From: Botryllus schlosseri
Lineage: Eukaryota
Assembly (NCBI GenBank): GCA_051294905.1
Contig: CM119373.1
Coordinates: 870,001-934,000 of the forward strand
Direction of reading: 5' to 3'
Length of the DNA stretch: 64,000 nt
Shown in pieces: positions 6,354-42,418 of this stretch. How positions within the stretch are numbered: position 1 is the stretch's first letter; each line of letters starts with the position of its first letter. The position numbers and the translations under genes were made by a program. Below the pieces are notes generated by a model. That model saw only the letters and a program-made list of their open reading frames with translations, was not told where the DNA came from and did no database searches.

Positions 6354-6416
6354 TTAACTTGCTAGGGTGTCCAACTAACTTGCTAGGGTGTCCAACTAAC
6401 TTGCTAGGGTGTCCAA
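6354..6416 (+). repeat. 21-bp minisatellite, three units, continuing after 8004
   Basis: Unit ctaacttgctagggtgtccaa is repeated three times. Related units resume at 8005-8085, mixed with (CT)n. Confidence 0.9.
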
Positions 6417-8004
6417 TAGGGTTGTCCATAATTTGGAAAATCTTACAAATCCTCGGTTGTAATGTCTTATTCGATAGATTATTGATAAAAAACGAAACTG
6501 AGCCTGAAAGAAGCTCACAGAAAGGCCGTTAAGATTTCGTGCAAAGCGTTTGAAAGTAGCTGCCGAAGAATGGGCGTGCCACCGACCATAGAACGGCGAG
6601 AAGACTAGTAATCAAGAAACCACGGCTCTTGATTGGATAATCGGCTATGCTTCAATGACCACGTCAGCAGCAGCCTGCTGATTAGGTGAACAAGGAGTCT
6701 GCTACTGGCGGCGATTCTGAAAGCGCATTGTATGTAGGTTGACAGATAATGATTTAGGATTGATTAAGGGTATGTTGAGGTACGAAATACATGATGAACA
6801 AACAACAGGTGCTTCACAAAAACGTCTAAAGCATGACTGCTTTATTGTGAAAGAAACCGCCGTAGCCTATATGCCTTGTTTTCAACGAGGGCAAGCATAG
6901 GCGCTTATGCAAGTGGCGACGGATTCCTAGTTTCAGAAATAATATATCATTATTGAATACAAAGATAAAGCTTAACAATGACACTATAGTTTGTGTGATC
7001 TCATTGGGCTCGGGTTGTAGTGCATAGTTGAAGTTTTGAAAGCTCTAAGGGTCGGCTGAATCAGCGGGTTATGCTTGGCACTTGTCAAATGCTTGCATCA
7101 AACTGTATTCACTTGCAAGTGAATATGCTGGATATGATATGTCAAATTCCTTAATAATCGCGCAGAAAAGGGGTGTAAAGATAAACACAGACAATGCTGC
7201 ATAGTGCATAGTATCCAACATAGTTTGCATATCATATCAAGCAGGGCCTGTGCTTGCATAAAAACCTCGTTTCTGCGACATCATTAGGGACTTTGAAAAC
7301 ATTTACCAGTGAATTCAATTTGCTGAAAACATCTGATGAGTGCTAAGCCTAACAGTCTGATTCAGCCGATCGCTAGAGCATTCAAAACTTCAACTATGTA
7401 CTGCAACCTGAGCCCAATAAGATCACCTAACTTATAGTGTCATTGTTAAGCTTTATCTTTGTATTCAATAATGATATATTATTTCTGAAACTAGGAATCC
7501 GTCGCCACTTGCATAAGCGCCTATGTATTCCCTCGTTGAAAACAAGGCATATAGGCTTCAGCGGTTTCCTTCACAATGAAGCGGTCATGCTTTAGACGTT
7601 TTTGTGAAGCAGCTGTTGTTTGTACATCATGTATTTCGTACCTCCAGATACCTTGAATCAATCCTAAATCATTATCTGTCAACCTACATACAATGCGCTT
7701 TCAGAATCGTCGCCAGTAGCAGACTCCTTGTTCACCTAATCAGCAAGCTGCTGCTGACGTGGTCATTGAAGCATAGCCGATTATCCAATCAAGAGCCGTG
7801 GTTTCTTGATTACTAGTCTTCTCGCCGTTCTATGGTCGGTGGCACGCCCATTCTTCGGCAGCTACTTTCAAACGCTTTGCACGAAATCTTAACGGCCGTT
7901 CTTTGAGCTTCTTTCAGGCTCAGTGTCGTTTTTTATCAATAATCTATCGAATAAGACATTACAACCGAGGATTTGTAAGATTTTCCAAATTATGGACAAC
8001 CCTA
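6417..8004. mobile_element. 1.6-kb foldback (whole-length palindromic) non-autonomous element
   Basis: Termini tagggttgtccataatttgg/ccaaattatggacaacccta; ~600-bp near-identical inverted arms; 8-bp TSD gtgtccaa at 6409-6416 and 8005-8012. Confidence 0.95.
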
Positions 8005-8020
8005 GTGTCCAACTAACTAA

Positions 8021-8716: not shown

Positions 8717-8886
8717 AGTTGAGTACCGTAATACTACTACGTTACCGAGGGATTACTGCTCAATTCTGACGATGATATTCGAAATGCTTTGTACGGGATT
8801 GACATCTAGCATTGGTAAATCTCTGATGACTTTCATAAAACGTTTACAACCTGAATTCAACGGTGCATTACGCGATATTTAGCAAT
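8717..8886. repeat. Diverged fragment of the ISL2EU-like long TIR
   Basis: agttgagtaccgtaatac..ctacgttaccga...gcgatatttagca matches 32140-32318. Confidence 0.8.
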
Positions 8887-8959
8887 AAACTCATCACGTG
8901 TTCGGCATATCGTGCTGGAGGTTTACATCATTTCAACGCCCTGTTGCATCGTCAGCGGA

Positions 8960-23286: not shown

Positions 23287-26200
23287 AGGCTGCTGCACAC
23301 TGGCTCTCGCGACACGACAAAACGAGAGAATCGCGCCTGTCTGTGACAAAACCATGCACACCGCGTCGCCAGACTACGCAACAAAGTGTCGGCGAGCGGG
23401 CTGCGAATCTCGCCGACAAAGTTGGATTTTTTCGCGAGTTGCGGGCTCAGTCGCCTTAAAAAATAAACACGCGCTTTTATTTCGACGGTGCTGTTGCAAT
23501 CTTTTCTAATCGTTCAACTTCCTAATTGAACATACCCGTGTAGCAGATGCGTGATTTATCTTGGGATTGACTCAGGGCGCAGTATGATATCCAACAAGCC
23601 CAGAAAAAGAATGATTCAACCTCAAGTTGATAACTTGAAGATGGATGAACGAAATCGAGATATATTTGATAATTAAATTACGATATGTTCACAATACAAG
23701 ATGAATAACAGAGAACATGACCGCTAGTCCGCCAATGCCACTGACAAGCTTGACATTGCGAAACTGCCGGTAGGCCAAGGAGAGTAGGCCTTTATATTAT
23801 AAAGATATCTGATTGATGGAGTATGTTCGGGGTATAATGGAGAATGTTAGGGGTATCAACGATTAGACACCTTCTTGTTTATATTCTTTGTATCTAGGGT
23901 ACTGTATATTGGGCATCTGCGTCTCGAGTTGAAATAATAAACTGACTTTTCGAATTTGAGAATATCTTAGTGGCATTATGATGTATTCCTTATCAAAATT
24001 CGGAGCATCAGCAAAATGCTCAGTACACATAGAAAACACATATGTGTAGGAAGTATCTTGATGTGTTCTTCAAAAGTAATAACCAAGAACCTATACTGTT
24101 ACGAAATCATTAAGCTGGCACAGAACAGATAGGCCTACGTTACGAGTGTACGACCCGATGTCCCAGTGTGCAGCAGAACGCAATTACCGCGATCATGAGC
24201 GCGACACGATCGGGGAATTGAGGCTGCTGCACATTGGCTTTGCGACACGACTAAAACAAGTAAAGGCCTCTGCACACTGAGCTCGCGACCCGATAAAACG
24301 ATAGAATCGCGCCTGTCTGCGACTGGACCATGCAGACCGGAGTCGCCGGCAACTCGCAACATGCCGTCTGCGACAGGGTTGCGCAACTCCGCGACAAAGT
24401 TGAAAATTTTCAACTTTGTCGCGAGTTGCGAGCGACTGGTCAGCAGTTACTGATCCTTAGTTCTATGTCACCGCAATAGTTTGTCCGGGTATTGCGTGTT
24501 TTGGCATCTTTAATTGTTTCCTCAATGAATTTAGACTGATTTGAGGCCATCTTTACTGCAAGAGCGCATTCTACTGTAAGCAGTACCGGTACTTGGTAAT
24601 TACCAAAGGCCAACCAGCTCCAGCAGTACCGATACCGCGAAACTCTCAGTCATTGTATGTCTACAGGTGGATTTATTATATATATACCTTGTCTGGTTCA
24701 TTTTAACCTGTACACTGTACAGTGTACAATGTACATTGGTTGGAAACTGGGTTAAGCAGGCACATATAATCGTGGTATGTCATGGGTTCACTGATGTATA
24801 TTTCAGATACCGGTACATCTCAGAACACGACGTCTGAAAATCTTTTTGATGACTAGGTAGCAGCAGTGTAACTCTTGATGTTAGATTTCGTCTATTCTCC
24901 TCTTTATGAGACTTCGGTACGAATTGTAGTGGCTAATATTATAAGTCAGAAATGGACTACGCATCATTATGGAGAATGAATCAACCAGGCCTACGGATCA
25001 GTTTCCATGCTTGATACCTGAGGGCGAATCGAAGATTGAAAAGGAAATAATCCCAGAGTTATATTTGAATATTGTTAAGACTCAATTCATTTACAATGAA
25101 ATTATAATGCATTTGAATGTTGTTCTCTATCATATCGAGAAATTAATGTATGAGTGCTTGACAGTTGATGCAGTCACTGAGGCAGTGGAATACAGAAAGG
25201 CTTGATGTTTGTAGCATAATAGGCTACAGCTAGAGCTCCAGAAATTTGGATCGGCAACCGGAAATAGCGCCTTTAACTGGGTCACCCAGATTATGCGTTA
25301 TCAGCATTGAAATATGATATTGGTTCGTTAATAGAAAAGTGTGTGCATATAAGACGTCATCTTATTCATTGACAAACCCATGTATACCCATCGAAATATT
25401 CATTTTGCGATCTATCGGGAGCTGTGCAATGTGTATCCATTGCGAGACTTCGGACAGAACGCGCAAGAGCTGTAGTTGCCGCTTGCGGGCACTGCCGGGA
25501 CCAGTGTGCATTGCTTCGCGACTTACGACTCGCAACTCGCGATGTTGCGTCGCGAGGTCAGTGTGCAGAGGCCTTAATTCCCCGATCGAGTCGCGTTCAC
25601 GATCGCGGTAGTTGCGTTTTGCTGCACACTGGGACACCGAGTCGTAACGTGGGCCTATCTGTTCTGTACCAGCTTAATGATTTCGTAACAGTATAGGTTA
25701 TTGGTTGGTACTATTGAAGAACACATCAAGATACTTCCTACACATATGTGTTTTCTATGTGTACTGACAGCATTTTGCCGATGCTCCGAATTTTGATAAG
25801 GGATGCACCATAATGCCACTAAGACTAAGATATTCTCAAATTCGAAAACTGAGTTTATTATTTCAACTCAAGACGCAGATGCACAATATACAGTACCTAA
25901 GATACAAAGAATATAAACAAGAAAGTGTCTAATCGTTAAAACGCCCTGGCATAGTCCATCAATCAGATATCTTTATAATATATAGGCCGACTCTACTTGG
26001 CCTACCGGTACTTTCGTAACGTCAAGCATGTCAGTGGCATTGGCGGGCTAGCGGTCATGTTCTCTGTTATTCATCTTGTATTGTGAACATATAGTAATTT
26101 ATTTATCAAATATATCTTAATTTCGTTCATCCATCTTCAAGTTATCAACTTGAGGTTGAATCTTTCTTTTTCTGGGCTTGTTGGATATCATACAGCGCCC

Positions 26201-26497
26201 TGAGTCAATCCCAAGATAAATTACGCATCTGATACACGAGAATGTTAAATTAGGAAGCTGAACGATTAGAAAAGATTGCAACAGCACCGCCGAAATAAGA
26301 CCGCGTGCTTATTTTCTACTGCTACTGAGCCCGCAACTCGCGACAAAGTTGGAATTTGGAATTTTTCAACTTTGTCGGCGAGTTGCGCAGCCCGCTTTAT
26401 TGCGTAGTCTGGCGACGCGGTGTATGTACATGGTTTTGTCACAGACAGGCGCGATTCTCTTGTTTTGTCGTGTCGCGAGAGCCAGTGTGCAGCAGGC
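23287..26497. mobile_element. Composite inverted structure built from Harbinger-type MITEs
   Basis: ~0.9-kb inverted arms at 23287-24219 and 25577-26497, with outer ends ctgctgcacactggctctcgcgacacgac and its complement. Confidence 0.88.
24264..25574. mobile_element. Inner Harbinger-type non-autonomous element
   Basis: TIR aggcctctgcacactga/tcagtgtgcagaggcct with TAA on both sides. Confidence 0.85.
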
Positions 26498-26999: not shown

Positions 27000-27945
27000 T
27001 TTTCAAATAGAATTTTGGTTGGAAATACTAGCAGCGATATTGTTTATGGCCGCCAAAGCCGACTGCATTAAGGCATCGAGATTGGCAATTTGCTCCATAT
27101 GCCTCTCCTCGAATCTCAATTTGCTCCATATGCCTCTCCTCGGACTACATCAAGAACTGGAGCTGCTGGTCACTCATTTCCTTCAGAGATTTTATTATAC
27201 TATATTTGTCTGATTGCTGGTCATCCGCTTCCGTTCTTCTTAGTCGTTCCTCGAAGTCCCTTTATTTAAAAAAAACGGAATAAGAGTGCGATGCATAGTA
27301 CATTGATTTATTTTTATACCATTTATGACCCGTTGCAGAGTCTGACATGCTGGGATATCAGCAACGGGGGATGACGTTCCTGACGCCTCCATAGCGATTG
27401 TTTCACTTGATGTGTCACAGTCCACCGTGACCAGAAACGTGATATCTTCGTCTCGTCGTTAACTGCAGTCGGCTGTGCAACACGCGAACTCTCAAATCCG
27501 GCGTTTACACTTACTGACTAACGAAGTAGAATATATTTGATGACTTAGAGCTCGCCTAATGGCATTTACTAGTCACCACGAATCATGTGGACATATATAC
27601 TTACTCTACACCTTGGACGGCTTCTCGTCATTTCGTGCATATTATTGAAATATGGCCACGAGAGTCCCTTTGAAAAATTGCTCGATGTATCCAGGTCTGT
27701 CAGTATTTTATTATGCGTGTCTTTCAAAGCACGCCACTTTCTTCAGAGTTGTTCGCTAAAATATTGACAATGCATGTACTACCGGTATGTATAAGCACTC
27801 ATGCAGCAAGATTATTCGACTTAACATCGTAAAATCATGGCCATTCGCTCTCGCAAAAAGCGAAACATGTCGGCGTTCCTGTTCTTGGTGCTATCACTTT
27901 CATCGATCAACTTCCTCTCCTTTGCAATAACCAATAAATCAATAA
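27000..27945 (-). pseudogene. Harbinger Myb/SANT (trihelix) partner gene, 5'-truncated
   Basis: Reverse strand reads LLVIAKERKLIDESDSTKNRNADMF and RKWRALKDTHNKI...LSWPYFNNMHEMTRSRPR, similar to the gene at 38020-38828. Confidence 0.75.
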
Positions 27946-28446
27946 TAGGCCATTTGCAGGACTTCGATCACGTGACTAGATACGCATAGCAACCACAAAT
28001 TGGTTAGCAAGCTACTTTCTCGCGCACCTGCTTCAGTGCTAAATATCGCATACTGCACTGTTGATTTCTAGTTGTAAACGTTCCAGAAATTTGTTGTGGA
28101 AGTAATCAGAGATTCACCTATGCTAGACGTCAGTCCTGTACAAAGCATTTCGAGTGGCATCGTCAGAATTACGCGGAAATCCCTCGGTAGCGTAGTCGTA
28201 TTACGGTACTCAACTCTGATCATATGTACTTAAATTCTGGCATTTGAAGTAGAGCGATTGGTTTATGTTTTGGTAAGAGTATTTGTTAGTTCAAGTAGTA
28301 CTATATGTCTGTTGTTGAGCCTGATTTTGGATGGAAGATAAGACTGAAGCAGCTGAGACCCGCAAGGATCACAATATACTGTGGGCTCTGCTGTCGTGCT
28401 GACATAAAGACTAAACAAAGTAGTGCACTATATTGTTGCCTTATAC

Positions 28447-30044
28447 CAGGGGTCGGCAACCTTTTGCTAGTCGCGGGCCAAATTTCGGGTGTACAACCTT
28501 TTGACGGGCCGGATTTTTTCTTAGTACTATATTTTACGCTCACTTCGGTGTATTATCCTACATTGCTGCAATCTCAATCATACCAATCCGAAGACACATG
28601 TATTTACACATCAACGACACAGAATAATTGTGACAATTGACTCAGCTTGCTTTGTGAAAGGTTTTCAACTTCTGGTAACAAGTCAGATGAAACAAGAATC
28701 AGACCCTATTCAAAATGGACGTCCGAAATACGTGATCTTAGCTTGCTCTTCGTGAATTTCATTGTTCAAAACTATTGTTCACATGTGTACGTGCTTCCAA
28801 AAATCGATGCAATTTCTTTTGCATTGCTGGTCAAGCTGGGATAAAGACCAATTTCAAGAACGTACTCTTTGTCAAAGTCATGGAGCTATATGCTCTTTGT
28901 ATGAAATTTGTCATTCAATTCAACTGCATCGCATTTCAGAAAGGCCCATTTGAAATTTTCAGGCAATGGTATTGGCGTCCACATTAAACAGAGTACTGAA
29001 TAGTCAGAATTCATTTTGTAGAGAAGGAATGTCGGAAAAGAGGGTGAATATTCAGTAGTTAAATTTCGTATCACCGAGGCCTATGAATATCGTAGGCCCC
29101 GGTATCACAGTTACAAATGTAGTGTTGGTACTAGGTTCTCTCCTCCAGTATAGGAAAGTGAGCATAATTTTCTTTGTACTGTTGACATTTCCAGAGTCAC
29201 AGATTTGTTTTGAATGCGCCTCGACATCTCATGTATGTAGTTGTTTTCCCCCTGAAGTTGCAAGTTCAATTTGTTCAGATGTGACGTTAAATGTACCAGG
29301 AAAGCAAGATGAGATACCCATTTTCGATTACAAGATTATGAATCGGCGATATTTGTATTTTCGAGGAAAGTTGCTATTTCATTTCTCAGTTCATACACTC
29401 GTGTAAGCATAGCTGCTCGACTCAATGAGCGAACATGACAGATATAGGCCTACATGACATCGCCATATTGATTCTCTGCTTCTAGTAATATCTGGCGTAA
29501 CTGATTCAGTTGATGAGACAAAAATCATATTAACAGTTTTCACCATTGTGGCCAAAACACTATTCAGGTTTTTTGTCTTGGCACACAATGCCTTCTGGAA
29601 AATCAAACTATAGACAGGCTAACTAACATACGGAGGCTAGTTATCTATAATTGAATAGTTTGAAATTCCGTCATTGCGTCTGAGACGCTCCAAGCGTTTT
29701 TTGAAGCAAAGGAAGAACACGTTTATTGTCACACCCCGTTAGAGTGATTAACCCTTTAAAAAAGCATGGAACACCTTCGGTTGCGAGATACACCCGATTG
29801 ATAAGCACTGATCCAGTCTAGTCTATTTCCATCTCCTACTTCAACCACGTTCGTGTTATGGCGTAACAATAGACTAATACGATGTAGGCTACTATTATAT
29901 CGTAAAAATGCCGCATTTTTTTCATGCAGCGCTGCACTGCAGATTGAAACTCTTTATGAAGCGGCGGGCCGTATTCTTGTGATAACTAATTATTGTCGCG
30001 GGCCGGACGATTTCGCTTGGCGGGCCGTAGGTTGCCGACCCTTG
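28447..30044 (-). mobile_element. Deleted hAT (Charlie/Buster-like) element
   Basis: TIR caggggtcggcaacct/aggttgccgacccttg; TSD ccttatac at 28439-28446 and 30045-30052; remnant KALCAKTKNLNSVLATMVKTVNMI. Confidence 0.92.
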
Positions 30045-30499
30045 CCTTATACAATGCTGCTTTTATTAGCACTACTTGATTGACTGCGTGATATTTAATG
30101 CAGCACTGCATAGCCTACTATAGCCTGCTATAGTTGTATTGTATAGGGGTAGTTGGTAATCATTGCAGTATTTTGATGATTGATATCGTTTGCAATATAT
30201 ATAGGATACCGCTATTTTCAAGCCTGAAAAGACAAAGACTGCCAGTACGTTGATGTGTTAGGAATTCATGCAACATGCTACATACAATATATATATATAT
30301 TAAACATCCCATGCTATTGTATGGCTTCTCAGTAAAAAAATCAATATACTTAGACCTCTATACCTATATTACAAGTTATTGACCATTCTGTCATGCTACT
30401 ATATTACAAGTTATTGACCATTCTGTCATGCTACCAAGTGCCGTTACCCGAAGAAAAATGAACCTCAGCCCCAACTGATGATGCAACAAACTGTATGGA

Positions 30500-30710
30500 T
30501 TACTTGATTGATTGCCTGGATTGGAATACTTTACTGTTTGGCACATTGCAAATATCTTGAGTTTCAAGACATGGCTTTACCACATGTATACGAATTAACG
30601 ATCTGATGGATTATCCCAAGAGAGCCGAACATAGTCAACTAAGAAATTGATGATGCCTGGATCCTGGATCCAGCCTGGAGCCAATTATGATCACCACATA
30701 AAATTTGGTC
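30500..30710 (+). pseudogene. Possible ISL2EU transposase remnant
   Basis: FKTWLYHMY and, after a 1-nt shift, WSNYDHHIKF recall the ISL2EU motifs FxTW and WSxYKxHxTxK. Confidence 0.4.
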
Positions 30711-30739
30711 ATGCGGTAAAAAGCAGTGTGGTTTCATGC

Positions 30740-30963
30740 CGACAGAAATGTCAGCAGATGATCTGACCACTGACTAACTGTCCTGAACTTCTTTCCCGAT
30801 GCTGATGTCGGCTTTGAAAATAATATTTCATTTGCGTACAGCAAGATAAGCGCTCTTCCGTAGATGCTATGAATCTGCCTAGACAAGTGGCTATGGAGGC
30901 AGAGGAAAATACATGGGCATAACAGTCTCGGCAGTTATTGAACTTGATAAGGTTAACATCCAT
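30740..30963 (-). pseudogene. Possible YqaJ/lambda-exonuclease remnant (ISL2EU second gene)
   Basis: KYYFQ...SGQLVSGQIIC*HF resembles YYxQxQGQLxxxGxxxCDF and is convergent with the putative transposase. Confidence 0.35.
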
Positions 30964-31154
30964 TTTTCTTCAACTATTTCTTATGCTCTGGGTATCGAAT
31001 GCACAAAAATTAATAAATCGATCTTCTTTGCAAGTTTATTTGTAAATTCAATGAATCAAAGAATATCATAAGTTCATAATATTACGGAGTCAATGCGAAA
31101 GAAACAATGTTAGTCGTCTTTAGAGGAGATTTCTGAGTTGGTTGAGCCAATACA

Positions 31155-31670
31155 CAGAGGGGGTCAGCAACGAAGTACTATTTTACCTGAGTACTAGCTT
31201 CATTATGAGTTTAGGCTACTTCCACTTCTACTTGACACTTTTTAGGTAGTACTTTTTTGTCAGGTTTGGGATTTTGTCAACTAGAAAGTAGCTTTGGCGC
31301 ATGATTGCATCCCCTTCAAGCGTGAGGTTGTCATAACAACTGGGCAAAATAGCCCCAGTACCACGGTAACTAAATTAATTTTTGAAAATTGTACTTATTT
31401 GTGGTGTCATCACCCTTTTGCGTTGATCAAGAAGATGCAACATGCAATGTTTACAGTTGTCACATGGCATCAATTTCTAAAACTAAGTGACCCTCAACCA
31501 AATCTAATTCATGTAACGAATTTCTTGACCGCTTTTCAGAAATTCATTTCTACTTCCACTTGAAGTACTTTGGACATGTCCTGGAAGTAATTAGTGCTAC
31601 TTGTACTGGAGTATAAATTAAGGCATTACTTCTACTCAGTTCCCAACAATGACCACGTTGACCACGTCTG
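31155..31670 (+). repeat. AAGTA/TACTT-rich non-autonomous element, longest copy
   Basis: Imperfect ends cagagggggtca/tgaccacgtctg; near-identical to 39607-39997; no TSD seen. Confidence 0.7.
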
Positions 31671-32411
31671 GGTATAGGATGACCGATCTTGTCACTGCGT
31701 TTGAGCTGCTCTAAGAGTTATATGATAGTTACTTCCCTTAGTTCGCTAAATATCGCACATATGTGACATCAACTATTTATCAAAATCGAGTGTGATTTGC
31801 CAAATCCACTTCAATCGCAGTTGCGAAGTAGTGGTAATAAAATTGGCATTGTATAAGGCAACAATAAAGTGCACTGATTTGCTTAGTCTTGACGGCAGGT
31901 TCTCCCAAAAGATACTTCCGATGTGTTCAGCGACATTTGTTTTATAGCAGCACGCCAGCACCCAAACCAGCAGACAGTATATCCTGATCCTTGTGGGTCC
32001 CGGCTGCTTCAGCCATATCTTCCATCCAAAATCAGGCTCCACAACAGACAAATAGTACTGCTTGAACTAACAAATACTCTTACAAGAATATAAGCCAATT
32101 GCTTTACTTCAAATGCATAAATTTAAGTACATATGATCAGAGTTGAGTACCGTAATACGACTACGTTACCGATGGATTTCTGCGTAATTCTGACGATATC
32201 ATTCTAAATGCTTTGTACATGATTGACATCTAGCATAGGTGAATCTCTGATGACTTCTACAACAAATTTCCGAAACGTTTACAACCAGAAATCAACAGTA
32301 CACTATGCGATATTTAGCACTGAAGCAGGTGCGCGAGAAAGTAGCTTGCTAACCAATTTGTTGTTGCTATGCGTATCTAGTCACGTGATCGAAGTCCTGC
32401 AAAAGGCCTAT

Positions 32412-34423
32412 TGAATTCAACGCCTCGTTCCAAAGTACCAAAAGAGATAAAAAAAACAACTGAAAAACCAGTGGCATAATATTAAGCAACGTACGAAAAG
32501 TAAATACACAAAAAGACGGCATTACCAAGCTCTAACTGGAGGCGGCAGACCGGCATCTCCAGAGGAGCCATTGGCAGAGAAGACCTATGGTACAGCAGTA
32601 ATTATAAATTTAATAGATTCTTATGAATTTTGGTTAACGATTTTGCAGGGATAATTCAGGCTCAAATTGAACCAAATGATAACCCCTTCGACGATGACGC
32701 CATTTTGGACCAGTCATACAATTCTAACCTATCGGTTCAGAGTACTGATAGTAAGTAGTCCGAAAATCACGCCAATTTCTATATGCGCGCAAGCCTATAT
32801 ATATCGTTTTCAGAATTCTCCCCGATTCAGACGTCAAAATATGCCTTACCAACACAAGGTAATCATCGCATTTCTATGATACGTTTCCAATTCTAACTAT
32901 TTCTTCATTTATTAGATACTAAAGTCGTCGCGACATCTTCGATTGCGGGTATGATATTCGTCAAATTGTTTATTTTCAAATCAAATCAAGAAACTGTAAA
33001 AAAACGCATGGACATTGAAGTAATTCTAGGTTGTTGAATTTAGCTAAAATGCTGTTCCACCAATAGCTGACGAAGGGCTCTGCCGGCAGTAGTGCTTCCA
33101 CCTGACACAAATCCGGCAATGTCATTCTCGTCTTGCTGATGCGGCACTGATATTGGCGTGTTCACTGTCACATTGTGTAGACATGCTGCCGCGACAATTA
33201 TTACCAGCGTATTATCGAGTCGCGTACGCATTGGTTTCGACAAGCAAAAGAAACGTTGTTTAAGTACACCGAACGCTCGTTCGATCTTTATCCGGTTTCC
33301 GATTAATGCGTGGTTATACCTCGCATCAGCCTGATTTGATGGGTTTATTATTGGTGTCATCAAGTTTGGGAGGCAAGGGTAACCACTGTCACCAAGTAAC
33401 AACCCATCAGTTGTTTCCATTGATGCACACAGGGTCGAAGAGTAAATTCTTGAATCGTGTGTTGATCCCGGCCACCGACACACGATGTGAGTGAATCTCA
33501 TATTAAAATCACAACCGAGCTGTACATTTATTGAGAAAAATACCTTTCTATTGCGGTATACCTCTGCATTATCCCCGCCTGGAGATAGTATCTTCACATG
33601 GGTCCCATCAACAAGTCCGATAACTCCTGGGAATCCATGTTCATTATAAAACTTTATTTTTTGGCCCATTAAGCTACTTGGATCCGTTTGAAACTTCATG
33701 AAATGTGCCTTCCTTTTTGCAATCGCCCGTGCCACATTATGGACGATGCGACATGTTGTTGCTTGATGCATATTCATCAAGTCCCCGTCTGTGGTTTGAA
33801 AATTTCCCATGGCGAAAAATCGCGAAGCCGTGAGCACTCGAATATGCATCGGGAACGGGTTGTTTCTGTTGCTTGAAAAAGCAATATCATTTTTTATCAT
33901 ATTTATCAGATCGATTACTTGAAGTTTTGAAAGCCGAAATCGAAATCTTCCAACAAATTTGTCACAATTCCATTTCCTAAATGGGTCGTCGTTGTCTTGC
34001 AATTGGGCATGAATTTCCAAATTCTGCAGCCGCTCCAGATATACAAGATAAGCATCCATGTGACTTATTCTAACTGAAAATTGCTGTGCAATATAGAACG
34101 ATGTGACATGTTAGCATAAAACTTGGGTTTCGGTCATTTGTTTACAACTGCTTCGACTATGATACAAAGTATGAATGCCATTTTAGCGAATTTATTTAGG
34201 GGGATTAATCGAAATTTGTGTTATACTCATCAAATGCATCTCATTTTAAAAATCAGATAAATCGAGGGGTGAGATGCTGCTCCAGATGGCATGTAAAGAG
34301 CATAGAGCCAGGATCGACTATTTACAGGAGAAAATTCGATGCGCGAAGCGAAAACTAGCGCTTGAGAAAGAAGTTCTGAAAAAACAGAGCCGTCTGTTAG
34401 AAATACAGATAGAGCAGAGGTAA
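32412..34423 (+). pseudogene. Spliced Harbinger Myb/SANT partner gene, 5' end lost
   Basis: Exons ~32412-32589, 32649-32750, 32814-32858, 32916-32948 and 34257-34423, separated by four phase-1 GT-AG introns that splice in frame. Peptides EFNA...RDKKQLKNQWHNIK...TGGG and IEPNDNPFDDDA, then a coiled-coil tail. A poly-A slip lies at ~32449. Confidence 0.82.
33040..34059 (-). CDS. Intact intronless Harbinger/HARBI1-like DDE transposase (339 aa)
   Basis: Uninterrupted ORF with FRLSK, GFPGVIGLVDGTH, YRNRK..SINVQ, WPGSTHDS, LLGDSGY, IERAFGVLKQRF and CLHN. Confidence 0.95.
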   Translation of the reverse strand: MDAYLVYLERLQNLEIHAQLQDNDDPFRKWNCDKFVGRFRFRLSKLQVIDLINMIKNDIAFSSNRNNPFPMHIRVLTASRFFAMGNFQTTDGDLMNMHQATTCRIVHNVARAIAKRKAHFMKFQTDPSSLMGQKIKFYNEHGFPGVIGLVDGTHVKILSPGGDNAEVYRNRKVFFSINVQLGCDFNMRFTHIVCRWPGSTHDSRIYSSTLCASMETTDGLLLGDSGYPCLPNLMTPIINPSNQADARYNHALIGNRIKIERAFGVLKQRFFCLSKPMRTRLDNTLVIIVAAACLHNVTVNTPISVPHQQDENDIAGFVSGGSTTAGRALRQLLVEQHFS

Positions 34424-34689
34424 TGGAACGGATAGTGTACCGCGAGTCGTCTTACTATTACTCGTTTCTTTTCAAGGTTGAAGAATCATTCATCCAACTG
34501 AGAAGCTGGAGTCCAGCAAAGCATAAACTTTTGCGGTTTTGTTTTTAATATAGCAGCCAACAGCCTGTGTGTCGTACTCATGCTAGCCATTGTTTTTAAC
34601 CTTCGTAACAATCAGAAATTAGACAAGAGTTTTGATGCAGGGCTAGAATTGAGCAGATGAACTTTCGGAGCGAGGTCATTTGAACATTT

Positions 34690-34791
34690 CATACGCGACA
34701 ATGGTGCAAAGCGATCAACAATGATCTTGATCATTGATCACGGTAACGCAGGTCACGATCAACTCTGGGCTGACAATGGTGCATAAGGCCC
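34690..34791. mobile_element. Probable right terminus of the 32.4-34.8 kb Harbinger
   Basis: gacaatggtgcataaggccc followed by TAA; gacaatggtgca is repeated subterminally. Confidence 0.6.
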
Positions 34792-35876: not shown

Positions 35877-36053
35877 AAAAATATTTTTGGATCAGGATGG
35901 ATTTGGACTGAAAATTTGGAAAATATTTTTGGATCAGGATGGAGTTGGACTGTAAATATGGAAAATATTTTTGGATCAGGATGGAGTAGGACTGAATTGA
36001 AAATTTCCAGGATCGGACTTGGACCGAAAAATATCACAGTCCGCTCATCACTG
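35877..36053. mobile_element. hAT-like end with tandem subterminal repeats
   Basis: Three aaaatatttttggatcaggatgga..ggactg units ending cagtccgctcatcactg. The partner end was not found. Confidence 0.6.
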
Positions 36054-36272
36054 CAGCTTACCCGACAGCGTCGTCGTTTTACATGTCACAGGAATAACCC
36101 GACACTTGTCCACATTTGGCGCAATTGCACACGTTCCCTAGTAACGGGACGCCAAATTTGTTAACCCTGTATAAGTACGGTACAGTGTACATGCGACTGT
36201 TGTTTGTCATAACTAACTCTAATTCTAGTGAAAGAAATAATACATAATATTAAATAACGGAGTTATTTTTAG

Positions 36273-37983
36273 ATGGATCTAGATCAGGACTTAGTGAGGC
36301 GAAGGAGATTGTTTAAATTATTTATTACGAATTGGTTCAACATTAGATCAAAACGAAGGCAGCAGTACCTCAAGATCTGTTCAGTACTTCAGCGAGAGAA
36401 TCGAGAGCGAGACAGCCGTCTTCCCAGACAACTGTGGATGACATCTAGGTCAGTTTACCACAGCTCCATCAGCCTAATGCATCATAATTGATATAACGAA
36501 ATAATTAATCCACTTCAAACACAAATGTTTGTGAAGGTACGATGATTTTTGGAGGCTTTTCATGTATGAAAACAACGACGACGATTGGATGAACAACTTC
36601 CGAATGAGGCGAGGGACATTTGAATCAGTCGTGGAGGAATTTCATGACGATATGAAGCCACGTATGGAGCCTATATTCAGGGTCATTCAACTTTTGGTCG
36701 AGTGCGTAATCGTGTTTTGCTTTCACAGGTGAAGATTCTGTACGGAAGCCAGTCGACACGTCAAAAAGAATTGCAATAGCGATATTCAAATTAGGTTCTA
36801 CAGCAGAATACAGAACAGTTGGTCATTTATTCGGCGTAAGTGACAGCTCCGTCCACAACTTCGTGAAAAGGTTTAAATCGACTATTGCAATACCTGCTGG
36901 TGTTACGAGAGCAATACTGCAACCTTACTATATTGATTGCAGATTTTGCGAAGCAGCTTCAGCAAAAGCATCGAAATTTATTTGTATGCCATCAAGTGAA
37001 GAGGCAGAAAATATAAGTCGACGAATATTTGAGACTCATCATTTTCCACAGGTTACACCAAATACTTTACTTTAAGTGTTGACTGTTCTAATCTGCCCGT
37101 TTCACAAATACATCAACTTAGGTGTTTGGTTGCATTGATGGCTCGCACATACCAGTCACAGCTCCAGCTATTGGCAGAAAGAATTATACCAACAGGAAAG
37201 GTTGGGAGTCTGTAATACTTCAAGCAGTTGTGGACGACAAGTACTGGTACGGCGCGTAGCGGAATATGGTTTAATTTTTGGACTATGGATCAATTCCAAT
37301 CTTCTCTCTCAGCTTCAGGGATATAAGTGTCAAAATGCCAGGGTCATGTCACGATGCCACAGTTCTGCGAGCTTCCAACTTGTGGCGATACTCGCACCTA
37401 CTTCCTCAGGTGAAGATAACCTTCGGGATGTCATTTGAGTAGTGCGAGTAGAATTAGAAAATATCAAATTTTCAGAATTCAAAGAGGATTGAAGGGGTCG
37501 ATATTCCTCCGGTTTTGTTGGGTGATCCGGCATACCCGCTGGGTAAATGGCTCATGAAACCATATGTCGGCTCTGCTCTTCACCCAAGATACGAGTCTTT
37601 CAATTTTTACCTGAGCTCAGTTCGCATAATCGTTGAAAACTCATTCGCGCGATTAAAAGAACGGTGGAGGATTCTTTGCAAAAAAGATCGATGCAAGCGT
37701 CGTGATGGTTCCTGACATCATTGCCGCATGCTGTGTATTGCACAATATATGCGAGACTGCCAAAGAAGATGTTGCACAATGTGAGCATGCACAACCACCT
37801 GTAAGTGCTCCGCAAGCTCAACATACTGACAATGACGATGTTAGCACGGTTTCGACGGAAGGCAGTGGTGAAATCCGTGAAGCTATTGTCCGTTTTCTTG
37901 AAAACAACTATCCACTTCGCCATTCTGAGCGATATACTCCTATAAGTTTTTTCTTTGCTGTTCTATGTTTCGTAACATTTTAA
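36273..37983 (+). pseudogene. Six-intron Harbinger transposase, nearly intact (one poly-A frameshift near 37680)
   Basis: WMNNFRMRRGTF; KRIAIAIFKLGSTAEYRTVGHLFGVS; VFGCIDGSHIP; NRKGWESVILQAVVD; PGSCHDA; LGDPAYPL; VENSFARLKERWRIL; CCVLHNICE. Short GT-AG introns separate these blocks. Confidence 0.92.
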
Positions 37984-38019
37984 TTTATACAAAATATTAA
38001 TAAACTGAATTCTAACAGT

Positions 38020-38828
38020 TTTAAAAGAATTGTTCGAACATTTCTTTTAGAAGTTTGCGGTCTTTCTCCCCTTCCTCTCGAATTGCCTGCACCACGTCAT
38101 CAATATCTGAAATCGAAGGATTATATATGATTATCTTACGCCAAAGCAATAAACCGAATATTAGGGAGATCTATACCGCTATGCCTTTTCCGCTTTCCTC
38201 TTCTTTCTACTCTTTCTTCTTTTTCTTCATCCGAAACGGAATCATCTAGCACACATACAACAGTCGGCGTTGACAGGGTCGCCTCATCTTCTGATGCGTC
38301 ACTATCATCATCACTATGATCTTTGCTTGATGGGCTCTGAAAGGTATCTACTCCTCTGCTTTGCAATGCATGTAGAAACAATTAAATATGACCAGTTACA
38401 TACCGTACTCTCTGACTATAAGCTTCTCAGCACTTATCTTACCACCGTTCGAGGCCGGGAGCCAAGCAATTCATTCATTTTTAAGTAATGCGGCCACGTG
38501 AGCTGCTTAGCGCCCATCCCCGACACCTGGACCGCCTGTTTAATCTTATAATAGGTTCTTTTCATCGCCTTCCATTTATCGCGACATGATGTCCTATAAT
38601 GATAGAACAGTATATAAGACCAAGACTGCAACGAACGTAAAGGGCTATTATTTACCACTCCTTCTGAATCCCTCGACTTTTTAATTCCTCCGAGACATCG
38701 CTGAATAGTTTTCGGTTCCTCTGCCGCCTTTTGTCTATTTCGTCAATCAATTGACGCTCGCCGATAATCGCTATCATTGTTTCTGCCTCCTGCTTCGGCC
38801 AGGTAATGTATTGTTTTTTTTCCGACAT
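38020..38828 (-). CDS. Spliced Myb/SANT (trihelix) partner gene, convergent with the transposase
   Basis: MSEKKQYITWPKQEAETMIAI...RQRNRKLF and CRDKWKAMKRTYYKIK...WPHYLKMNELLGSRP, followed by an acidic linker. May carry a lesion near 38650. Confidence 0.8.
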
Positions 38829-39439
38829 TGTCTACTTTATATATGATATTATATGAAACTCCCTAATAATCAAATATATCGTCTATCAATTAATGTATAT
38901 CCCAAGATAGATGTGTCATGTGTATAGTCGATGCAAAGTGGGTGTGTTTGTGTATGTGGGCGGTGCCTTGTTATTAATCAACACTGAACAGCTGAGTACT
39001 GGAAGGGTTTATCTATCGAACGTCAACATTGCATTACATTCGATGGTATATAATTAGTTTATTAACCTAATGCAAAGTTGACACTGTATTTTGGAGAGTG
39101 ACTAGGTCAAATAAGAACGCGTATCATCTGCAAAAGTACCGGTAGTCGTTAGGTACCAAATACTTACCAAATACTTCTTAAGTCCACAAATATGCTACAG
39201 CAAACATTCTTAGAGCCTAAATTAAGGTAATGTTTGGTAAAAAGGCTTGCTTTTTATCGGGGGGTAAATTGAATGGTCCATATCAGAGAATTTTGTTCGT
39301 GCCGTACGGTACTTTATAGGCATATCGCCATTTGCCGGTATAATTATATCAACAGGTGCTAAAAGTTAGTTATAATATTATAAAACTAACTTACAATCAA
39401 TTACACAGCCATTGACATACCAAAACCATACTAAAGTGT

Positions 39440-39606
39440 CCAGACGAACGTTTCCGTTACCCGATATACGCGATTTCCCCTGCTGTTTCAGCGGGTAACT
39501 TTCGCGAGACTATTTCCCCGACAAAGTTGCGTCGTCTGTGACGCACGAATGCGTCACCTTACGTCGGGTAATTTATCGAGACATCTAGCGACATGTAGAT
39601 AGGCCT
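39440..39606. mobile_element. Probable right terminus of the 36-39.6 kb Harbinger
   Basis: Ends gcgacatgtagataggcct. The ttacccga/tcgggtaa motifs also occur at 36058-36105. Confidence 0.55.
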
Positions 39607-40605: not shown

Positions 40606-40849
40606 TATAGACAATGTATATAGACTCGTAGTATAGCCAATGGCAGCACGTTTATTACCGAATTATTACGAAACGAAATGTAGAAAAAACAAAATTACGA
40701 AAGTGTAGAAAAAACAAAATTACGAAAGTGTAGGCAGACTTCGACAACTAGATAATTCTAAGGAGTCAAATTTCAATAAATTAGAGCGAATGCCAGTTTT
40801 CCAATTGTAATCTGAAAATTTTGCAGTTGTCCGAGTCTGACTTACGCGC

Positions 40850-41990
40850 TCATTTTGCACTGGGTATTGTCTGGCAATTTCTTGCACAATGTCCGAAAAG
40901 TAATGTTTTCTTTCTCTGGTCCGACGCCACATCCACTCATCGATATACGACGGTACGAAACCCCGTACCGAACCATTCATTCGCTTTAACTTCCGTTTGC
41001 AGTCTTGCCAAAGACTCTCAATATTGTTCGTGTGAACCCCTTGGAGGAGTCTTAAACAGATGTTTGTGGCAGACTGTTTTATGCGTGTAGCCGTTGCCCA
41101 TTCCTGATAAGGAAACAGAAATGTTTTAATAACATTCACCATTATCGCTGTATAAGATTTCATTTACCGGTTATGCACCGATACGCTGCCCATTCATCCG
41201 ACCAAATTTCGGTGCCTGGAGCAATATATTGTCGAATAAGGGGCAACAGGGTGTTTGCGTCCCGGCGATCGACGAATCGCATAAAGCATTGGCTACATAA
41301 CACATTATATACTTCAAGTTTTGCTGACGTTGGATTTTCATTTTCTGTACACAAACTTTGTCGTAAGGTCCACGCCTCCACAAATCCATTGCTGTGAACT
41401 CGGTCTTGCTTGGGCGTTGGCACCACGGCCCCTCTTAGCGATTACCGATTCGTCGATTGCCACCACATGTCCCGGGCCACCGATGACACCGGAACCGCGT
41501 AACAGCTCGGCTGAGCAGATCTGGAATATGCCACAACGCTTTGGAGTAAATACAATGCCTTACTTTACAATAGAATTTGGGTAATACCTCCCTGAAAAAC
41601 TGGCACCAGTCGATGCAGGTCCTGTTGCTTATTTTTAAGTTCGTCGATAATCTTGACCTGGTCGTGGTCCTTGCACCAGAAGTACAGCATGTACAAAAGT
41701 TTCGTCGGGGTGAAATTACTTTTGTAAAAAATGAGCCATGCCGGATGCTAATGAAATCTGAGCATTTCTGTGAATGATAAATGTCAAGAGAGCCATTAGT
41801 TTCTAGCTCAAACAAATAATTAAAAATTTCATACCGGGCAACGCCAAGCAACCTTATCGTTCACGTCCCTGAATTTTTCTGCGCAGGGCACTTGGCATTT
41901 CGGGCAATTCTTCTGTTATGCCAGCAGTCCATGTTCTCGGAAAAACAGAATGGCTGCGCGGTCGCTTGACAGCACGCCCATTTTCACCAG
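40850..41990 (-). pseudogene. Merlin (IS1016/ISXO2-like) transposase pseudogene
   Basis: SIRHGSFF; DWCQFFRE; IGGPGHVVAIDES; LLPLIRQYIAPGTEIWSDEWAAY; GVHTNNIESLW...SYIDEWMWR. Confidence 0.92.
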
Positions 41991-42369
41991 TTCGGGTAAA
42001 CCTACACCAACTAATGTCGACATGCTGACTGGTAGATTTGCGCTATGAAATGAAACTATATATTATTAGGCGATGCTTTAACTTCACAAATTTTAATGCG
42101 GCATAAAATTATTCATGCATAGAAATTAACCTAATCCTATGCCTATATATGCCATTCACGAGCTTATATATTAACCGATTTCAGTTTTAATTAAATTAAA
42201 TTATTAGTTTATATTAGGCTTACCATATTTTGGAAATCTAAAAAGAGGACACTTTTTCAGAAATTTGAGACTTGCAAAACCGGAGAAGAATTCTCAAAAA
42301 CCGGTGAATTTTTCCCACTTAGTGATCGGTTGATCAAAAAAAAATTAAAAAAAAGGTCCCGGCCGGGGG

Positions 42370-42418
42370 TTGCTATGCGTATCTAGTCACGTGATCGAAG
42401 TCCTGCAAATGGCATATT
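42370..42418. repeat. Orphan terminal fragment of the ISL2EU-like TIR
   Basis: ttgctatgcgtatctagtcacgtgatcgaagtcctgcaaa is identical to 32364-32403. Confidence 0.85.

Follow-up and report, generated by a model that had tools for sequence, protein, structure and literature searches.

Two PIF/Harbinger families of Botryllus schlosseri with an antisense transposase gene in a late Myb/SANT intron and exact intron loss, likely via cDNA

The window analysed here, a stretch of 64,000 nucleotides from Botryllus schlosseri, very probably contains a 5'-truncated copy of a PIF/Harbinger transposon whose transposase gene lies in antisense orientation within a late intron of the partner Myb/SANT gene, and this copy belongs to one of two such families in which Myb introns have been lost exactly, likely via cDNA. 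The nested layout turns an ordinary loss of Myb introns into loss of the transposase; this is the clearest consequence of nesting, and it had been missed in the original prediction made from the sequence of the window.

Joining the exons of the Myb/SANT gene gives an open frame from 32451 to a TAA stop at 34421-34423. Four phase-1 GT-AG introns connecting five exons into one frame had been predicted, and both the coordinates (32590-32648, 59 nt; 32751-32813, 63 nt; 32859-32915, 57 nt; and the long intron 4, Table 1) and the open reading were confirmed. The claim that the fourth intron holds an entire, intact and intronless transposase gene on the opposite strand was also correct, the ORF being separated from the two splice sites by only 91 and 197 nt. 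The predicted transposase matches DDE_Tnp_4 (PF13359, E 4e-28), its named relatives are of the HARBI1 type, and its acidic triad D151, D224 and E260 is present, the two aspartates being found in 70 of 70 aligned transposase rows and the glutamate in 69 of 70. No solved structure matched the transposase in sequence, and a structure prediction for the transposase together with the exon-5 peptide, run without alignments, gave a score of 0.00. Position 32412, which had been taken as the start of the gene, is instead the end of an unrelated element that cuts off the 5' end of the Myb gene, and a run of eight A residues (32449-32456) introduces a frameshift that leaves the first 12 codons in another frame. 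For these two reasons the Myb gene of the window copy is dead; the transposase ORF of this copy is intact. Neither the family's 5' part nor the left terminal inverted repeat (TIR) is present in the window, in which the search extended to the left of the interrupting element. The Myb fragment that remains covers positions 59-78 of Myb_DNA-bind_5, in a match too weak to pass the cut-off, and is 47% identical over 45 amino acids to the Myb protein of the sister family described below.

Table 1. Features of the nested Harbinger copy and its left border, in window coordinates
Feature	Position	Strand	Evidence
Unrelated element with 444-nt inverted ends	27944..32412		Inverted repeat; right end truncates the Harbinger 5' part
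Myb/SANT exon remnant (third helix, GGG motif), frameshifted	32413..32589	+	Domain fragment, E 0.12
Myb exon 2, with an NPFDDD motif shared with sister families	32649..32750	+	Intron 1 exactly lost in 5/5 derivatives tested
Myb exon 3	32814..32858	+	Exon 2/3 join fits the derivatives, but ~40 extra nt precede it
Myb exon 4	32916..32948	+	Second in-frame acceptor at 32924 used in 4/5 derivatives
Intron 4, 1308 nt, houses the transposase gene	32949..34256	+	GT..AG, phase 1; exactly removed in 5 dispersed copies
PIF/Harbinger transposase ORF, 339 aa, intronless	33040..34059	-	DDE_Tnp_4 match, D151/D224/E260
Putative splice acceptor (for a 5' UTR intron or for trans-splicing), 14 nt upstream of the transposase ATG	34074..34075	-	Similar site in sister family
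Last Myb exon (exon 5), charged helix/coil, 54 codons	34257..34423	+	dN/dS about 0.2; profile match E 1e-4
Right TIR, ends at 34791, then TAA	34775..34794		Same end in derivative copies

Several other elements share the window. The interrupting element, of 4.5 kb, has no matching target duplication, and further ends of it lie at 42368-42418 and 8717-8889. Long hairpin (foldback-like) elements occupy 6414-8007 and 23290-26495, with arms of 708 nt and, in pieces, about 1 kb. Minus-strand ORFs at 40720-41860 resemble, by eye, what is presumably a broken transposase of the IS1595/Merlin type. A second Harbinger at 36000-39600 has an intron-containing transposase and a Myb_DNA-bind_4 gene arranged tail to tail, as anticipated from the side-by-side pair predicted at 36-39 kb.

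A search of the genome with the window family gave 54 matches, and 40 of 62 candidates were scored. Besides decayed intron-bearing copies (L002-L005 and L008) and short derivatives, five copies at five genomic places (L006, L007, L009, L010 and L017) have exon 4 joined exactly to exon 5 at 32948/34257; the predicted splice junction thus exists, already spliced, in dispersed copies of DNA. The junction was found in five of the ten loci scanned, the region being missing from the remaining five. In four of the five derivatives intron 3 is likewise absent up to the second acceptor (Table 1), and a candidate 5' UTR intron is retained in these elements. The four derivatives that were compared are 90-97% alike over about 600 nt, and both the left and the right TIR are present in four of the five, with TAA on both sides of L006 and unmatched target duplications at L010 and L017. 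The Myb frames are broken in all five. As the derivatives carry internal deletions and ~40 nt seen in no unspliced copy, their direct parent was not found. MITE-like copies of ~300 nt with both TIRs of the window family also occur (L014 and L016).

The closest transposases in the genome, 53% identical to that of the window, belong to a young family of 4547-nt elements (L032-L034 and L041). The Myb gene of this sister family (PF13873, E 2e-17) has seven coding exons, and intron 5 (L033 1488-2633, 1146 nt) contains the transposase in antisense orientation. Donor, acceptor and open terminal exon are retained in all four full copies, so that the expected conservation of terminal-exon frame and acceptor among copies holds for this family; in one further copy the terminal exon is deleted. 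Among the 40 candidates scored out of 104, one copy (G000:C11:27.13 Mb) is devoid of introns 2-6, transposase included. Its gap-free alignment to the joined exons 2-7 spans 443 nt and contains 6 mismatches; the copy is 98% identical to the full element and has retained both TIRs, a flanking TAT on either side, intron 1 and an open Myb frame of 255 amino acids. Target duplications noted in the various copies are TAA/TAA (L006), TAT/TAT (L085 and L089) and AAT/AAT (L086).

The same data bear on whether two independent elements are involved, either through the chance insertion of a transposase-only element into a Myb intron or through a chance reading frame behind the transposase. The window copy has no left end, so that a single element is not readable from the window alone, and nested insertions are common in the window. 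Against this stand the short distances between ORF and splice sites, within which no inner TIR pair was found, the single TIR pair that encloses both genes in full sister copies, the lack in either family of a Myb terminal exon before the transposase, and the selection on exon 5 described below. The TIR-bounded full copies and the spliced derivatives refute this explanation, to which we give next to no credence.

Another possibility, which we consider very improbable, is that the intron-less copies are plain DNA deletions or artefacts of assembly. Internal deletion is a common origin of non-autonomous DNA transposons, according to the part of PMC13668399 consulted, several small introns have microhomology of 2-4 nt at their ends, and a single contig holds both of the youngest intron-less copies, 0.43 Mb apart. 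However, five, four and three-to-four introns are gone together at exact GT-AG borders in three families, and microhomology at the long introns amounts to just 1 nt (intron 4 of the window family) and 0 nt (sister family). The retention of TIRs, target duplications and 5' introns is unlike any cDNA contaminant, and the five window-family copies have diverged from one another. An origin as retrocopies (processed pseudogenes) was also rejected, as both TIRs, sequence upstream, a 5' intron and the 3-bp duplications are all still present in the intron-less copies: introns were lost within the element, and retroposition did not take place.

In the explanation that we favour, a spliced Myb mRNA would have been converted to cDNA and recombined with the element, removing intron and transposase together, and the product would be a TIR-bounded Myb-only element, probably mobilised by transposase supplied in trans. 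The 5'-most introns are retained in derivatives of both nested families, as expected from partial conversion by cDNA, a mechanism of intron loss treated in the passages of PMC4158355 used here. The cDNA step is put forward as the likely one; RNA-templated break repair would yield an identical product.

The last Myb exon of the window copy was compared with a related isolated fragment (L018). Over 51 codons dN is 0.21 and dS 1.03 (Fisher p 5e-5), and 8, 11 and 21 differences fall on first, second and third codon positions, indicating that this exon has evolved under purifying selection. L018 shows no sign of derivation from a nested element: no transposase lies within 7 kb, and the intron similarity of 94 stays under a shuffled maximum of 106. 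When a profile of five terminal exons from tail-to-tail families was run against 1283 stop-to-stop segments, exon 5 of the window ranked first and L018 next, and the last exon of the sister family scored weakly (E 9). By this profile match, exon 5 of the window appears to be homologous to the exon that precedes the transposase in tail-to-tail sister families.

To place the nested layout among its relatives, 20 loci were fetched, of which 17 were scanned for charged terminal exons (L075, L076 and L080 left out) and their layouts labelled by eye. Twelve of these loci are tail-to-tail, one is nested, one is head-to-tail and three have no assigned layout. A Harbinger family of this genome (L073, L075 and L076) has a third layout, head-to-tail, in which the Myb gene follows the transposase on the same strand. 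In a midpoint-rooted tree of 30 transposases, built without L068, L076 and L080, the two nested families group in a single branch (98/92) with P0001, which is the nearest relative from outside and is placed by its transposase alone; five tail-to-tail rows are sister to this branch, and further tail-to-tail rows fall beyond it. The tree is compatible with a single gain of nesting. Relative to the 5' exons of the Myb gene, the transposase has the same place and strand in the nested families as in the tail-to-tail ones, and the change therefore consists of an exchange of position between the transposase ORF and the last Myb exon. The layout would thus have arisen once from a tail-to-tail state, the exchange possibly proceeding, as a guess, by tandem duplication and loss. 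Nesting was found in just two families, which share one genome; a metagenome scan gave, from 161 candidates, two loci that are distant, truncated and without a Myb match.

Two tail-to-tail families were searched as controls. One of their copies (L149, G000:C11:27555885-27559868), situated at 27.56 Mb on the same contig as the intron-less sister copy and 0.43 Mb from it, has lost all four Myb introns exactly, the 30-nt joins showing 0, 0, 1 and 0 mismatches, and has kept its transposase region at 99% identity, with an open frame of 329 amino acids whose start looks shifted. As a tail-to-tail copy lost its Myb introns and yet kept the transposase region, these Myb genes are at risk of intron loss in general. 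In the second family, 36 related Myb-retaining copies (L150, L151 and 34 more places) were recognised among 40 candidates scored, and both of the two that were checked have lost most of the transposase by ordinary deletion. That Myb-retaining deletion elements have spread more widely in a tail-to-tail family argues against a special role of the spliced route. One tail-to-tail family has many near-identical copies.

RNA reads were mapped to the sister family only, and all informative reads came from one study. Three single-cell runs contributed 10, 18 and 16 reads, with 8 of 10, about 12 of 18 and 9 of 16 on the Myb strand and the remainder on the transposase strand. Among the other five of the eight runs, X16, X23 and X24 gave no read, X20 gave four partial reads of the left end, and X3 covers introns as DNA would. 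Nearly all Myb-strand reads fall on the exons beyond the transposase; two begin within the long intron and are therefore from nested copies. The sole listed RNA joint, 2802/2860 (GT..AG, 3 reads), fixes the strand and could stem from an intron-less copy. No joint across the long sister intron is listed in the mapped reads; depth sums suggest that X14 and X17 each contain a single read connecting the exon end at 1205 with the exon start at 2634, a read that appears to skip the small exon. Reads on the transposase strand cover the 3' end of that gene, cross the small Myb exon and reach about position 1260. In the sister family 7 nt separate the transposase stop (L033 1495-1497) from the Myb donor (1488), which makes an overlap of the transposase 3' UTR with a Myb exon unavoidable. 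None of the five sister copies compared has the variants seen in the reads; such reads therefore come from other alleles or copies.

The original prediction had further placed the transposase promoter in or near the last exon of its partner and proposed that overlapping antisense transcription provides self-regulation. The nested gene model behind these proposals stood, the junction being spliced in DNA and the acceptor and frame kept, and with it the Myb pre-mRNA must cross the transposase in antisense, as would happen in the germ line; self-regulation remains hypothetical, as does the predicted position of the promoter. An AG resembling an acceptor precedes the transposase ATG by 14 nt in the window and by 16 nt in the sister family, a donor-like site is present at 34455, beyond the Myb stop, and, in the sister family, two minus-strand reads map past the right end of the Myb gene. 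On account of these reads and of the acceptor-like AG, the promoter may be situated outside the last Myb exon, on its far side and nearer to the right TIR, with a transposase leader that may span this exon. Trans-splicing is common in sea squirts.

Nesting might nevertheless have been kept for regulation, transcription of the Myb gene in antisense or pairing of sense and antisense RNA damping the transposase, with Myb-only copies acting in trans as helpers or repressors. The same three runs contain reads of both strands, the 3' end of the transposase transcript overlaps the Myb gene, the layout has persisted across 47% divergence of the transposase, and the intron-less sister copy has an open Myb frame. 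However, tail-to-tail families are the commoner ones here, one of them being rich in near-identical copies, elements retaining Myb with the transposase deleted also arise, and spread further, in a tail-to-tail family by ordinary deletion, and the Myb frames are broken in the five window-family derivatives, which makes this interpretation doubtful. It is also conceivable, if unlikely, that copying of the spliced helper mRNA into DNA is a built-in switch that erases the transposase, the resulting Myb-only elements tuning the full copies; deletion of the transposase by intron loss was seen twice, and that it was ever selected as a means of control is conjecture. Most likely, nesting is a rearrangement that has been tolerated, and its chief visible effect is that autonomy can be lost in a single step.

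The elements agree with PIF/Harbinger transposons (reviewed in PMC8616336, seen in part) in having a DDE_Tnp_4/HARBI1-type transposase, a Myb/SANT/trihelix gene, short TIRs starting with G and a 3-bp T/A-rich target duplication, TIRs at both ends being seen in the derivatives and full sister copies and the right TIR only in the window copy. Passages of PMC9179366 describe two ORFs, for transposase and Myb/SANT protein, and passages of PMC2213677 report a gene order that varies, upstream or downstream in Medicago and head-to-head in Caenorhabditis, whereas a transposase on the opposite strand within a Myb intron, as found here, is absent from the passages of both; the part of PMC4482050 consulted does not mention nested, intron or orientation. 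A limited literature search, with key older Harbinger papers outside it, yielded no nested Harbinger and no non-autonomous DNA transposon with splice-site borders. Whether a precedent for the nested layout exists is perhaps a toss-up, and the pairing of parent and splice-bordered product seems, from the same limited literature, less likely than nesting to be in print.

Repbase reports and a 2007 study of Drosophila DPLTs by Casola and colleagues reportedly describe varied and possibly nested Harbinger layouts. In the maize En/Spm (CACTA) element with TnpA and TnpD, transposase coding sequence likewise lies within an intron of the helper gene, but there both are encoded on one strand and expressed from one pre-mRNA by alternative splicing, whereas the elements described here belong to another superfamily, have ORFs on opposite strands and reads from both, and need two promoters. 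For CACTA transposases, the passages of PMC4158355 explain exact intron loss inside a DNA transposon by cDNA recombination; there the loss was deduced across families and the transposase survived it intact, whereas in the present case parent and product are 98% identical and the transposase is deleted. TIR-bounded mobile elements with the helper gene alone are also known as MADF-only Harbinger derivatives of Caenorhabditis inopinata, which PMC13668399 and its preprint, in the parts consulted, attribute to internal deletion from head-to-head parents, whereas the borders here are splice sites.

A practical consequence for annotation is that the last exon of the helper gene sits beyond the transposase and is easily overlooked. 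The young 4.5-kb family offers a test bed for antisense overlap between transposase and helper gene, and its parent and product provide a dated and direct case of what is probably germ-line intron loss of the cDNA type. DNA deletion during gap repair is the usual explanation of non-autonomous DNA transposons; this parent and product point to an RNA-templated origin of non-autonomous copies, putatively through cDNA. If the spliced helper mRNA did act as a switch, it would constitute an RNA route to non-autonomous DNA transposons. With the natural control of the same genome, in which the same intron loss in a tail-to-tail layout left the transposase region in place, these copies indicate that gene layout decides what intron loss costs a transposon.
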